A stretch of DNA of 20,766 bases, taken from the IMG/VR virus record IMGVR_UViG_2600254997_000022; one strand, given 5' to 3'. Positions 7,190 through 10,246 of the stretch are shown one piece after another. This DNA comes from a virus. Lineage: Duplodnaviria; Heunggongvirae; Uroviricota; Caudoviricetes. Numbering within the stretch: position 1 is the stretch's first letter; every line of letters starts with the position of its first letter. Under the pieces are notes generated by a model. It was not told the DNA's origin. It worked only from the letters and a program-made list of their open reading frames with translations, and searched no databases. Made by a program: the position numbers and the translations under genes.

Positions 7190-7804
7190 TCACAGATAAA
7201 ACACTCTCCAGGAAACCCGGGGCGGTTCAGTTGGTAGTCCTGCTTCTATGTTCTTAAATTGCTGACGTTTTGCTTCCCATGCAGAAATATCTCCCACCTG
7301 AGAGATTTCTTTATCAAGCTCTGAGTAGTCAGGCTGCTGAAGATTGCGATGTTGACTGGTTTGTGCAAACTGCAAGATTTCACTGTCATCAGGGATTATT
7401 CCGGCATCTGCAAATTTACTTACGTAATTAGCCGTTTCATCTGGCAGTGTAGATTTACCGTTTCTGACGGCATTAATACGAGCATAGCCAGAATTATACC
7501 CAGCCAATGCCATACCAATATCACCAAATCGCTTCATTCCTTTATTGAGATGGTTTGCTGCGATATCCATTTGCTTTTCAAATGGCAGTGAGCGCGGATC
7601 AGTTCCACGATAACCAGCATCACTCATTACTGAGGGCATCAGTTGAGCAAATCCTCTAGCTCCTTTCGGTGACTCGGCACTTCCGTTACCACTAGATTCA
7701 TTGCCAACTAATGTTTCCATCGTCCCTGATGGGAAACCATATTTTTCATCGAGATGACGGGAATAGGCTTTCTGTTTTTCTGTCAGTTGTGCCATCATTG
7801 CCAT
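7190..7804 (-). CDS. N-terminal fragment of the disrupted protein: lytic transglycosylase (SLT) domain
   Basis: GNESSGNGSAESPKGARGFAQLMPS and ALAGYNSGYARI match the family-1 lytic transglycosylase catalytic motifs. Native sequence ends at 7233; the last 14 codons and the stop are read from the IS629-like right end. Confidence 0.7.
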   Translation of the reverse strand: MAMMAQLTEKQKAYSRHLDEKYGFPSGTMETLVGNESSGNGSAESPKGARGFAQLMPSVMSDAGYRGTDPRSLPFEKQMDIAANHLNKGMKRFGDIGMALAGYNSGYARINAVRNGKSTLPDETANYVSKFADAGIIPDDSEILQFAQTSQHRNLQQPDYSELDKEISQVGDISAWEAKRQQFKNIEAGLPTEPPRVSWRVFYL

Positions 7805-9114
7805 CCCTTAAGTTTTGCCTGATAGTAACTTTCCGGCAGATAGCCATGTGCGGTCACATAATCCTTAACCAGTGAAGGATCCTGCAACAGCATTTTGGTA
7901 TCAGTTTCTTCGTCCTTTGATTTGGTTACAGGAATACCGAGCCCGGCAATCTGTCGTTTCTGCATTCGAATAATTACGTCCTGCGCTTTATTCAACTCTC
8001 GCAAAAATGCCTCATTGCTGGTTGCTGACTTAATGCCATTTTGAGATTGCATAAGGGCAGCCCTTTCCCCTTCGGTTGGGTTAGAGCCAAAAGTCCCTTT
8101 GAGGCTAGGCAGAATAACCTTTAGGTTGTATTCATCAGCTTTGGCGCGTAGGCTTCGTGTGTCTTCTGCTACATCAGGAAGGAATCCAAACCCCAGCGTC
8201 AGGGGGTTATAGTTCTGCGAGCGGGTAACGGCCGAAGGATGTTTCCCTACAATTCCCGCCAGTTCATGACCCACTTCAAGCGCAGAGTTCAAGGAGTCGA
8301 TGTTACCTGCAACAGTATTAATTTTATCGTTCATCTTCTCCACTTTCGCCTGCTGTACTTTGCTCAGTTCAGCATTGAGCTTGTCTCTCTCGATGTCATT
8401 TTGAGCACGTCCAAGTCGTGCTTTCAGAACCATTTCTCTCGTGCGTAGTTGGTTATCGGATAGGACTTTGAACTGCTCCATATCGAGACGCCGATTACCC
8501 AGTTCCGCATTAACCTGAGCATTATATGCAGATGTATCTGCGTTCTGCTGTGCAATGCTCTGCCCTTGCTGCTTCTCTTGAACACTAAAGTAACTATTTG
8601 GATCAGCATGGAGGTGGATGAGGTCAGTGATTCTGTTGAATTCCTGTGGGTCATTCTGCCAAGACTGATAAACCTCTTCAGCAGGAAGACCAAATCGCTG
8701 TAATACTGGATTTGCCTGCTGAATGGCCTTCTGCATGGTCAGTGGATCTCCAGTTTGTGACGCAAGACGCAGATTCATGGCAGCGTCAGCGGTCTGTCGA
8801 TTTTGCTCAGCATCAATGAATCCCATCTGTTTTTGAGAATCAGCCATAAACTGGGGATACTGGGCCATTAACTTCTGCACGCCAACACGATCATTATTAG
8901 CTACCGCACTACCCAACCGTGCCTGATATTCTTTTAGCTGCTGGGAAATTTGCGCCTGCTGATTAATCTCAGCAACGCCTCTTAGCCCCTGTAGCGCCAT
9001 TAAACCTACGTTTGGCTGCTGCTGATACTGCACAGGCTGAGGAACGGAAGAACGAGGAGCATTATCATTTTGCGGTGCCATGCTAGGCAGCCCGCCAAGT
9101 TGCCATGTCGCCAT
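7795..9114 (-). CDS. Gln/Ala-rich coiled-coil protein, 439 aa; ejection/internal-virion-like
   Basis: Start overlaps the upstream stop (TAATG) and its stop overlaps the next start, so it is translationally coupled. Q/A-rich, low-complexity composition. Assignment is by composition and gene order only. Confidence 0.55.
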   Translation of the reverse strand: MATWQLGGLPSMAPQNDNAPRSSVPQPVQYQQQPNVGLMALQGLRGVAEINQQAQISQQLKEYQARLGSAVANNDRVGVQKLMAQYPQFMADSQKQMGFIDAEQNRQTADAAMNLRLASQTGDPLTMQKAIQQANPVLQRFGLPAEEVYQSWQNDPQEFNRITDLIHLHADPNSYFSVQEKQQGQSIAQQNADTSAYNAQVNAELGNRRLDMEQFKVLSDNQLRTREMVLKARLGRAQNDIERDKLNAELSKVQQAKVEKMNDKINTVAGNIDSLNSALEVGHELAGIVGKHPSAVTRSQNYNPLTLGFGFLPDVAEDTRSLRAKADEYNLKVILPSLKGTFGSNPTEGERAALMQSQNGIKSATSNEAFLRELNKAQDVIIRMQKRQIAGLGIPVTKSKDEETDTKMLLQDPSLVKDYVTAHGYLPESYYQAKLKGWQ

Positions 9115-9791
9115 TAGAATCCAAGCCCCCCAACAAGACCAATAAGCCCACCACCAATAGCCCCGGCGACATTACCTATACCCGGAACAACGGAACCAAG
9201 TTGCGCACCCGCTAAAGCGCCTGATGCCGCCCCACCAATACCACGCGCAAGACTGGATGGCTGCTGCGCCTGACCTGCACGAATAGCGCCAAGCCCCTGC
9301 AAGAGTTGTCCGGTATTATTGGCGTAGTTTTGCCCTGCTGTTGCCTGCCCTGATGCCGCATTCATCCCGACATTTAGCAGGTTTCCATAATTTTGCATTT
9401 GCCCACTGAGCCAATTGTTATAAAGCATGGGCGCAATGGAAGATAACTGGTTACTGGTAGCTGTTGAGCCAAGCCCCCCGGTAGCTTCTGCTGAGACAAG
9501 GTTCTGATAACGGGCCTGATCTGCCTGTGTTTTATATAAACCAGAACCAAAGAAATCATTCGCGGCTTTATTCTGCCCTTCCAGAGTCATCAGTCCTTGT
9601 AGTTGTTGTAAAGCAGGCAATCCGACTTCTGCATACGGCTTGAGATTATTCATCACCGTATTCCACTGCTCGCGCTGCAAATCAATTGCCTGCTGCTGGG
9701 CCTTCGCCTGAGCTTTAGAGGCACCACCATCACCGCCTTTTTCGTATACGGCACGATTGAGATATTTATGAGCTATATGGGTAATTAACAT
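9114..9791 (-). CDS. 225-aa protein with Gly-zipper C-terminus; ejection/internal-virion-like
   Basis: Start overlaps the upstream stop (ATGTTAA). C-terminus GIGGAASGALAGAQLGSVVPGIGNVAGAIGGGLIGLVGGLGF is a glycine-zipper/membrane-like segment. Confidence 0.55.
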   Translation of the reverse strand: MLITHIAHKYLNRAVYEKGGDGGASKAQAKAQQQAIDLQREQWNTVMNNLKPYAEVGLPALQQLQGLMTLEGQNKAANDFFGSGLYKTQADQARYQNLVSAEATGGLGSTATSNQLSSIAPMLYNNWLSGQMQNYGNLLNVGMNAASGQATAGQNYANNTGQLLQGLGAIRAGQAQQPSSLARGIGGAASGALAGAQLGSVVPGIGNVAGAIGGGLIGLVGGLGF

Positions 9792-10246
9792 TCGCTGAAT
9801 TCCTTATATTGTTGCCGAGTTAACTGATAAAGCATTACGCCGACGGGTTTACCACATCTGATATAAGCATCATCAAGGTGACCAACACGGGTAGCGCCAA
9901 GCAAACGGATAATTGCCCGTCCGTATTTGGTGGTGTCAGGAACCATGGTAATGCTGTTAAGGAATGGTGAGTTTTCGAGAAGCCATTTGCAGAATAATCG
10001 ATGCCCTTGCAGTGCATATTCACCACGGAATCCGGGGTCGTACACCGCATGGCATTCAACAATGTTATGCCAGAAGTTACGCACTTCATGAACGCCAGCC
10101 AGCACCAATCCTTCGTAGATACCGAGATATACCGCATCAGGCTTGATGTAGTACGTGTGCCCCGGCTCAACAATATTTTCGGTATTGCCAGGCTCGTTAA
10201 GAAAGGCCTGTAATCGCACAGGGTTATCAATAAATTTTAGTTCCAT
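9785..10246 (-). CDS. hypothetical protein, 153 aa
   Basis: First large ORF of the coupled operon; starts 16 bp downstream of the small upstream ORF. No domain recognised. Confidence 0.55.
   Translation of the reverse strand: MELKFIDNPVRLQAFLNEPGNTENIVEPGHTYYIKPDAVYLGIYEGLVLAGVHEVRNFWHNIVECHAVYDPGFRGEYALQGHRLFCKWLLENSPFLNSITMVPDTTKYGRAIIRLLGATRVGHLDDAYIRCGKPVGVMLYQLTRQQYKEFSEC

Follow-up and report, generated by a model that had tools for sequence, protein, structure and literature searches.

The 20,766-nucleotide stretch listed as IMG/VR record IMGVR_UViG_2600254997_000022 (the window, here always taken at its full length) contains nearly the whole of an integrated island and runs for 20.8 kb, a 1.3-kb insertion sequence (IS) included, from dinD to the start codon of an integrase gene. 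Bases 1–26 correspond to the opening codons of dinD, the left 740 bases are 96% identical to the dinD–PerC region of E. coli SFE8, and the same integrase adjoins yicC in SFE8 and other strains. The island is therefore placed between dinD and yicC. Judged by its gene content and nucleotide identity, it is a new recombinant member of the published EcCIMP1 satellite family. An operon on its minus strand encodes homologues of gp14, gp7, gp20 and gp16 of phage P22, and it is this cassette, and the use that a satellite might make of it, that is considered here.

The operon starts with a conserved leader open reading frame (ORF) of 53 residues (10263–10424). This is followed by a gp14-like gene (9785–10246, 153 residues), homologous to P22 gene 14 (DUF2824) and belonging to a family of non-virion assembly factors; a gp7-like gene (9114–9791, 225 residues), homologous to the P22 ejection protein gp7; and a gp20-like gene (7795–9114, 439 residues), homologous to P22 gp20 and Sf6 gp12. 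All three are intact. The gp16-type gene comes last and lies in two parts: a 5′ fragment (7230–7804) with codons 1 to ~192, the lytic transglycosylase (SLT) domain included, and a 3′ part (3763–5918) with codons ~193–908, which carries a +1 frameshift in an A6 run at 4513–4518. Between the two parts sits an IS3-family element on the plus strand (5919–7229), as placed by alignment with the NC101 island (locus L001). Within the cassette, stop and start codons overlap by 7 nt, 1 nt (ATGA) and 10 nt, and the co-oriented, tightly packed order 14-7-20-16 matches that of the P22-like phage Kapi1 and of P22-like prophages. A lipoprotein gene (2914–3612, minus strand, 232 residues) lies directly downstream of the gp16-type gene.

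The original prediction confined the operon to 7190–10246 and described four coupled genes there, the last encoding a large protein with an N-terminal lytic transglycosylase domain. Three intact, overlapping genes of 153, 225 and 439 residues are indeed present. The fourth, however, is broken and reaches position 3763; its predicted domain was found (residues 17–120), but between 7190 and 7804 it is part of a truncated ORF of only 204 residues. The limits themselves did not stand, as the start lies further upstream, with the 53-residue ORF, and the 3′ part runs to 3763. The true extent of the operon is ~3763–10560. A composition rich in Gln, Ala and Gly had also been claimed for the proteins. 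This applies to the gp7-like (41.8%) and intact gp16-like (30.7%) proteins and weakly to the gp20-like protein, where it is slightly raised (27.6%), but not to the gp14-like protein (17.0%); the island primase gives 25.0% for comparison.

Homology of the four gene families

The genes had been assigned to ejection proteins by composition and order alone, and direct homology by profile and sequence searches now bears out this assignment for all four. The gp14-like protein matched Pfam PF11039 (DUF2824, E = 4.8e-60) and phrog_651 (‘head morphogenesis’, 2.4e-65); it shares 82% identity with Kapi1_055, the protein in the same position in Kapi1. The gp7-like protein matched PF25688 (P22_gp7) over profile positions 19–229 of 230 (E = 1.9e-72, 244 bits against a cut-off of 28) as well as phrog_598 (‘DNA ejection’, 1.5e-69), and is 57% identical to Kapi1_056. 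Matches of the gp20-like protein were to PF16928 (Inj_translocase, the P22 gp20 family; E = 1.8e-22, 80.6 bits against a cut-off of 29.7), to phrog_917 and phrog_2534 (‘released from the phage upon host infection’) and, by tblastn, to Sf6 gene 12 (E = 2e-20) and gp20 of the P22-like phages ST160 and SE1 (E = 6e-13). Its best match in a sequenced phage is at 28% identity, with Kapi1 gp20 at 26%, and its closest relatives outside islands are homologues at 38–45% in P22-like prophages of Serratia and Providencia. In these prophages the cassette comes after terminase, portal, scaffold, coat, gp4, gp10 and gp26, and is itself followed by Arc/Mnt and the tailspike.

For the gp16-type gene, two ORF fragments of the 3′ part matched phrog_770 (‘DNA transfer protein’) at 1.2e-78 and 1.1e-35. 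The intact orthologue of 906 residues is 46–52% identical by tblastn to the gene 16 or ejection proteins of HK620, CUS-3, epsilon34, Dewey and Huey, with 48–52% for HK620 gene 16, the CUS-3 DNA transfer protein and the epsilon34 ejection protein. Its counterpart in Kapi1 is 24% identical, and identity to this helper phage drops along the operon, from 82% (gp14) through 57% (gp7) and 26% (gp20) to 24% (gp16). The Salmonella orthologue carries precomputed Pfam matches to SLT and to PF26808 (Phage_P22_gp16). PF26808 gave no match to the gp16-type protein in the local Pfam scan, for which the Pfam copy is suspected to be without that model.

The 204-residue ORF matched the SLT family PF01464 at residues 17–120 (E = 1.6e-13, 50.7 bits against a cut-off of 21.3) and phrog_342 (‘internal virion protein with endolysin domain’, 9.5e-18) at residues 8–182. 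Its translation contains E35-S36, G51-FAQLM and A101-GYNSG, and by these motifs the N-terminus of the gp16-type protein is a family 1 lytic transglycosylase domain. The match to Dewey and Huey (46% identity) spans 97% of the gp16-type protein and covers the SLT domain, so the fusion of SLT and gp16 exists in real P22-like phages. Transglycosylases have been reviewed as absent from P22-like phages (PMC8954989). Contrary to this, Dewey, Huey, Sf101 and a Serratia prophage carry an SLT domain in the gp16 gene or in its position.

A likeness to the ejection proteins of T7-like phages, also proposed originally, was found only in part. As in T7 gp16, an N-terminal lytic transglycosylase is borne on the largest protein, the presumed catalytic Glu 35 corresponding to E37 (PMC8954989). 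Outside this domain, however, no sequence relation to T7 gp14, gp15 or gp16 was detectable. Membership of a T7-type internal core was rejected: the sole match to a T7-type family, phrog_342, came from the SLT domain, and the other proteins gave no T7-type matches. The closest likeness is to P22, Sf6 (gp11–13), HK620, CUS-3 and Kapi1, with which the cassette shares four homologous families, their order and their tight coupling. Searched by sequence against PDB chains, the four cassette proteins returned nothing at E ≤ 0.01, and NCBIfam gave no cassette match apart from a weak one to the SLT domain. On the matches above, the family identity of the four genes is firm, and their functions are predicted from it.

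The gp14-like protein was modelled with AlphaFold2 at a predicted local distance difference test score (pLDDT) of 93.6, giving a GNAT acetyltransferase fold. In Foldseek the best matches were SpeG-type GNATs, which are polyamine acetyltransferases (probability 1.0, template modelling (TM) score 0.74–0.79), and the ‘PGFRGEYA’ loop bears only a partial likeness to the acetyl-CoA loop. The model hints that the gp14-family assembly factor may be an enzyme.

The EcCIMP1 family and the distribution of the cassette

EcCIMP1 was described as an island of 19,963 bp that occupies tRNA-Thr/proA in the genome of E. coli MP1 (Pick, Stadel & Raivio, ISME J 2025, PMC11773190). It is excised only in the presence of the P22-like prophage Kapi1, excision requires the alpA and integrase genes of EcCIMP1, and Kapi1 transduces it at low frequency (PMC11773190). 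Phage structural genes were not found, and the DUF2824 and ‘DNA transfer’ genes were put forward as possible packaging factors (PMC11773190). The same work reported that alpA_1 of EcCIMP1 can replace Kapi1 xis, for which an ‘insurance policy’ was proposed, and that EcCIMP1, on which no known defence system was found, adds to the superinfection immunity of Kapi1 lysogens (PMC11773190).

The window shares with EcCIMP1 a size of ~20 kb and the genes for AlpA, the AntA antirepressor, an Ash-family protein, the DUF927 primase, the cassette, the lipoprotein, alpA_1 and PerC. Its cassette shares 99.5% identity with the MP1 and NC101 cassettes and, with the IS excluded, positions 925–18244 are 98–99% identical at the nucleotide level to the NC101 island. 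It differs from EcCIMP1 in its integrase, in a 316-residue ORF, in the extreme left end and in its site (yicC–dinD as opposed to tRNA-Thr/proA), and also in its damaged gp16-type and ash genes, described below. The island has the make-up of a phage-inducible chromosomal island (PICI), namely an integrase, AlpA and a primase in one orientation, a length of about 10–20 kb and no structural or lysis modules. No ORF in the window matched a head, tail, terminase or lysis family, and the original statement that no head or tail genes lie beside the cassette thus applies window-wide. Terminase, portal, scaffold, coat, gp4, gp10, gp26 and tailspike genes, all absent from the window, are present in the true prophages that contain the cassette. 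Unlike in P22-like phages, where portal, coat, gp4, gp10 and gp26 precede the genes and a tailspike follows, the island cassette has a primase and candidate origin upstream and its own leader ORF, operator-like repeat and terminator.

A closer inspection of the gp16-type gene accounts for its broken state. The IS is 1311 bp long, with terminal inverted repeats TGAACCGCCCCGGG and a 3-bp target duplication (GTT). It splits the gene at codon ~192, and the last codons of the 204-residue ORF read into it. By the sequence of its OrfA we take the element to be IS629-like; matching copies are labelled IS3 family transposase in RefSeq. Its own orfB is split by a frameshift into two overlapping ORFs (6296–6880 and 6738–7187), and the element is therefore probably defective. 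This exact insertion was absent from all 5426 complete E. coli genomes. The frameshift in the 3′ part is due to one extra A in the run at 4513–4518, at codon ~659. Removal of the IS, one GTT copy and one A results in a single ORF of 908 codons, identical at 902/906 residues to the intact NC101 protein of 906 residues. The ash-family gene (15719–16788, minus strand) contains two 1-nt insertions relative to NC101 (16348 and 16376) and is split into ORFs of 210 and 168 residues, where NC101 has one gene of 355 residues. Each of the three single-base insertions lengthens an existing base run, so they may reflect either decay or assembly error; only the IS insertion is certain. The fourth gene is a pseudogene in this window and, because gp20 needs a cognate gp16, the cassette is probably non-functional in this copy. 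Damage was also seen elsewhere. In E. coli M15 (locus L031, 5350–10821) the same SLT-gp16 gene has been broken independently by IS3-family and IS4 elements at another codon, and in E. coli AF10 (locus L011) gp20 is annotated as frameshifted.

The primase backbone was found at 80% coverage or more in 361 of the 5426 complete E. coli genomes (~7%), and the EcCIMP1-type cassette in 71. Nine E. coli islands were sampled, the primase being either this one or a mosaic. In eight of these, spanning two attachment (att) sites and two primase types, gp20 and gp16 genes directly follow the primase region; one more distant island, with a primase 76% identical, has no cassette. The content of the slot varies. 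One arrangement consists of the leader, gp14, gp7, a gp20 of 439 residues, an SLT-gp16 of 906 residues and the lipoprotein. Another has the leader, gp14, gp7, a gp20 of 473 or 432 residues and a gp16 of ~701–705 residues, and in a further type gp14 and gp7 are absent and the leader is succeeded by a gp20 of 447, 459 or 488 residues and a gp16 of 670–705 residues. Across the sampled islands gp20 and gp16 were always paired, while gp14 and gp7 were present or absent. The presence of several cassette types in one slot points to repeated exchange and not to a single decay event. The same architecture, with the 439/434-residue type of gp20, was found in islands of Leclercia, Salmonella, Pectobacterium and Serratia. 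These contexts were collected through homologous proteins and the contigs encoding them, a scan of contigs with a single protein having given two loci. A scan of IMG/VR gave 10 loci. Apart from one 17-kb metagenome contig they are mostly regions of isolate genomes predicted to be prophages, and they do not constitute evidence of packaging.

Mosaic copies were apparent among the islands. The SFE8 island (locus L005, 8998–12443) has the integrase of the window, but its gp20 is 75% identical to that of Kapi1, with ends identical to Kapi1 and a divergent middle. The first ~180 residues of its gp16 are near-identical to those of Kapi1 and the remainder ~30% identical. On sequence comparison, these mosaics show that satellites and P22-like phages have recently exchanged ejection genes. 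Moreover, an island assigned as L019 by its coordinates is 98% identical to the window over gp14, gp7 and the first ~160 nt of gp20 and differs over the rest. As in P22-like phages, mosaic divergence is fastest in gp20 and gp16 (PMC10883804). Between the E. coli and Leclercia islands the ratio of non-synonymous to synonymous substitution rates (dN/dS) is 0.07, 0.07, 0.07 and 0.08 for the four genes, at a dS of 1–2, which is near saturation. The cassette proteins are 81–88% identical between the two and the primase 68.5%. These low ratios indicate that the cassette is under purifying selection.

Possible roles of the cassette

Short-tailed phages rely on ejection proteins to get their DNA across the cell envelope. 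In P22, gp7, gp20 and gp16 leave the virion and form a conduit for DNA (Leavitt et al. 2024, PMC10883804). Whole foreign sets, from Sf6, L, CUS-3 and HK620, assemble into P22 virions and function there, with the proviso that gp16 and gp20 must be a cognate pair (PMC10883804). The determinants of escape from SieA, an injection block encoded by prophages, lie in the C-terminal portions of gp16 and gp20, and the HK620 set is partly SieA-resistant (PMC10883804). Given that foreign sets work in P22, it is plausible by analogy that a cognate set from the island could function in helper capsids, where it could alter sensitivity to exclusion. The need for cognate partners would also be the reason that gp20 and gp16 are kept together in the islands. 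Taken together, the evidence leans modestly towards a satellite that supplies its own DNA-delivery proteins to particles built by its helper.

Under this scheme a P22-like helper prophage would enter lytic growth and the island would excise and replicate, as has been shown for EcCIMP1. The operon would be turned on from an activator-dependent promoter behind the terminator, and the island ejection proteins would enter helper procapsids in the manner of foreign gp7/gp20/gp16 sets in P22. In the next cell, particles with island DNA would release these proteins. If the models for P22 and T7 are followed, gp7 and gp20 would build a trans-periplasmic tube, the SLT domain would cut peptidoglycan and gp16 would provide the inner-membrane conduit. 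The likely benefit to the island would be control over DNA entry and independence from the type of ejection proteins made by the helper. It might also allow escape from SieA-type injection blocks in cells with a helper prophage, which would be the best recipients for the island. More tentatively, and with some doubt, a widespread lineage of enterobacterial satellites may use an exchangeable P22-type cassette, consisting of a cognate gp20/gp16 pair often joined by gp14 and gp7, for helper exploitation, and may set its entry specificity by exchanging gp20/gp16 types with P22-like phages.

A number of points weigh against the supply of delivery proteins by the island. It appears that nobody has so far demonstrated island proteins in transducing particles. 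Ejection proteins load before DNA packaging, and there is no obvious restriction to the particles that will hold island DNA; a mixture of helper and island sets might have no effect or do harm. Transduction of EcCIMP1 is very low (~5e3 particles per ml) and the helper titre is unaffected (PMC11773190); neither finding calls for island ejection proteins. Only 2 of 21 EcCIMP1 strains contain a Kapi1-like prophage (PMC11773190). Moreover, at least three E. coli copies of the cassette (the window, M15 and AF10) have been inactivated, so that it is dispensable for carriage, and at a dS of 1–2 part of the divergence between the E. coli and Leclercia cassettes could predate capture, having arisen in phages. 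Kapi1 has no annotated sieA, and evasion of SieA is only a proposal for the pair of Kapi1 and EcCIMP1.

The requirement for cognate partners also lends itself to another use of the genes. P22 virions with a non-cognate gp16 or gp20 are non-infectious (PMC10883804), and mixed sets could therefore poison particles, such that the cassette would act in interference or exclusion, spoiling helper virions or blocking the conduit of superinfecting P22-like phages. Satellites commonly hinder their helpers, and this reading would suit the raised immunity of Kapi1 lysogens with EcCIMP1, an island on which no known defence system was found (PMC11773190); PADLOC likewise detected none in the window. However, Kapi1 titres after induction are unchanged by EcCIMP1, and the proteins have no signal peptides, so that cytoplasmic synthesis leaves them unable to reach the periplasm, the site of gp20 action. 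For exclusion, the adjacent TraT/DUF4136-like lipoprotein makes a simpler candidate, and a full cognate set with the assembly factor gp14 fits use better than sabotage. We consider interference unlikely on these grounds. The functioning of foreign sets in P22 (PMC10883804) would equally serve a back-up set that complements P22-like prophages with lost or diverged ejection genes and so lets the island exploit cryptic prophages. The replacement of xis by alpA_1 (PMC11773190) offers a parallel, and most EcCIMP1 strains are without a Kapi1-like prophage. Against this, there is no evidence that P22-like prophages preferentially lose their ejection genes, and a prophage missing just those genes would be rare. 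The back-up idea, which overlaps with the supply of delivery proteins to a helper more than it excludes it, seems quite unlikely.

Redirection of packaging towards island DNA, the role suggested in the EcCIMP1 paper, draws on position, the genes occupying the place of the packaging and capsid-redirection genes in characterised E. coli PICIs (PMC11773190), and on the ‘head morphogenesis’ label of the gp14 family. Yet the strong matches all fall within ejection-protein families, with none of them among terminase small subunits, Rpp/Ppi-like proteins, scaffolds or capsid proteins, making this role very unlikely. The original prediction had left a choice between ejection proteins supplied to helper particles and a prophage remnant. 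In the latter case the four genes would be what survives of a P22-like prophage that decayed next to or within an unrelated island, and would have no role. They do stem from a phage, and decay is evident in the IS and frameshift of the window cassette, in the ash indels and in the other broken copies. A remnant is nevertheless hard to reconcile with the same placement in five genera, between the candidate origin/terminator region and the same leader ORF and operator-like repeat, with a dN/dS of ~0.07, with several cassette types sharing one slot and with the lack of flanking gp26, gp10 or tailspike fragments. It was rejected as highly improbable, and the conserved slot, the purifying selection and the mobilisation of EcCIMP1 favour the supply of ejection proteins to helper particles.

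Known satellites act on capsid size, capsid identity or packaging, as do the capsid-forming PICIs, P4 with Sid and Psu, and the Staphylococcus aureus pathogenicity islands (SaPI) with CpmAB. Like these, the island has no full set of virion genes and would add proteins of its own to a helper particle; unlike them, it would contribute to the delivery of DNA. Full-text literature searches found no satellite described as encoding P22-type ejection proteins. If the proposed role is true, these would be the first known satellites to supply the DNA-entry machinery of a particle instead of remodelling its capsid or packaging. This would bear on how satellites reach cells guarded by prophage injection blocks such as SieA, and on why mosaicism among the virion genes of P22-like phages peaks in gp20 and gp16. 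It would also bear on routes of gene transfer in E. coli and Salmonella, the islands carrying PerC-type virulence regulators and variable cargo. The working annotation of the EcCIMP1 cassette is corrected from packaging candidates to ejection-protein homologues, and a genetic system is already in hand (MP1, Kapi1 and EcCIMP1::kan). The window itself carries less practical weight, being a decaying copy of an island family already published.

Control region and neighbouring genes

The replication module is closed ahead of the cassette by an intrinsic terminator on the minus strand (10520–10560), a GC-rich hairpin with a run of seven T residues. Its predicted RNA fold has an energy of -31 kcal/mol (z = -5.3), and 0/200 shuffled sequences folded as well. 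Next to it, at 10464–10510 and within what is presumed to be the promoter region, is a 16-nt inverted repeat that reads GTTTCATATTTTGCAA, 15 nt and TTGCGATTTATGAAAC on the minus strand. Its half-site was found upstream of the leader ORF in 7/7 E. coli islands tested, whatever their cassette type. Since a helper regulator might have used the repeat, it was sought in the helper phage Kapi1, where it is absent. The leader ORF is 87–89% identical to a 57-residue ORF that precedes the cassette in islands of other cassette types, and is a hypothetical protein in RefSeq islands. It gave no match in Pfam, PHROG or NCBIfam, and by eye is ribbon-helix-helix-like. The leader ORF is probably the putative regulator of the operon, with the inverted repeat as its candidate operator. 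A promoter scan found no sigma-70 consensus promoter upstream of the operon. An activator-dependent promoter is proposed for this reason, without a placement, and expression of the operon is probably activator-dependent.

Directly 3′ of the stop codon of the Toprim+DUF927 primase gene (11000–13759), an iteron cluster (10871–10976) forms the upstream border of the cassette slot. It consists of three direct and two inverted copies of GTTGGTTCA around an AT-rich spacer and, from its position and repeat architecture, is probably the replication origin of the island. A second cluster in the opposite orientation (1043–1170) has direct and inverted copies of the same iteron with AT-rich spacers. The two clusters bracket the whole of the cassette and cargo region, and the pair could act as recombination anchors for cassette swaps between islands.

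At the integrase end, the tyrosine integrase gene (19513–20766) is separated from alpA by the 316-residue ORF (18544–19494, minus strand, GC ~0.36), which matched nothing in Pfam, PHROG, PADLOC or NCBIfam. In related islands the same slot is taken by different hypothetical proteins of 281–321 residues, and it looks like a variable cargo position. At the other end lie PerC (721–1008) and a second AlpA/excisionase-like helix-turn-helix gene on the plus strand (1658–1843), which corresponds to alpA_1 of EcCIMP1. Cargo between the cassette and PerC varies: an Abi-family protein is encoded there in two related islands (locus L007, 1124–2101, and locus L008, 1091–2068) and a death-on-curing toxin in another (locus L006, 443–904). 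This interval appears to be a hotspot for defence and addiction genes. In the window, PADLOC detected no defence family, with the lipoprotein, the 316-residue ORF and the small ORFs covered.

The 232-residue lipoprotein downstream of the gp16-type gene (MIKNLLLILSLSLLAGC...) has a signal peptide and the lipobox LLAGC, and occupies the position of sieA in P22. In E. coli and Salmonella it accompanies this cassette type. An identity as SieA was rejected, because the FxRYPxEAxxFNK motif is missing and the protein is a lipoprotein rather than polytopic in the inner membrane. Pfam matches were weak (DUF4136 at 0.06, TraT at 0.09), and distant homologues carry PF13590. The structural model (pLDDT 86.5) includes a beta-hairpin of ~45 residues, and Foldseek matched it to the DUF4136 structure 4f54 with a probability of 0.99 and to decamers of the surface-exclusion lipoprotein TraT with probabilities of 0.87–0.96, at low TM scores. 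The superinfection immunity associated with EcCIMP1 would be explained more simply by the 232-residue lipoprotein than by the ejection proteins.

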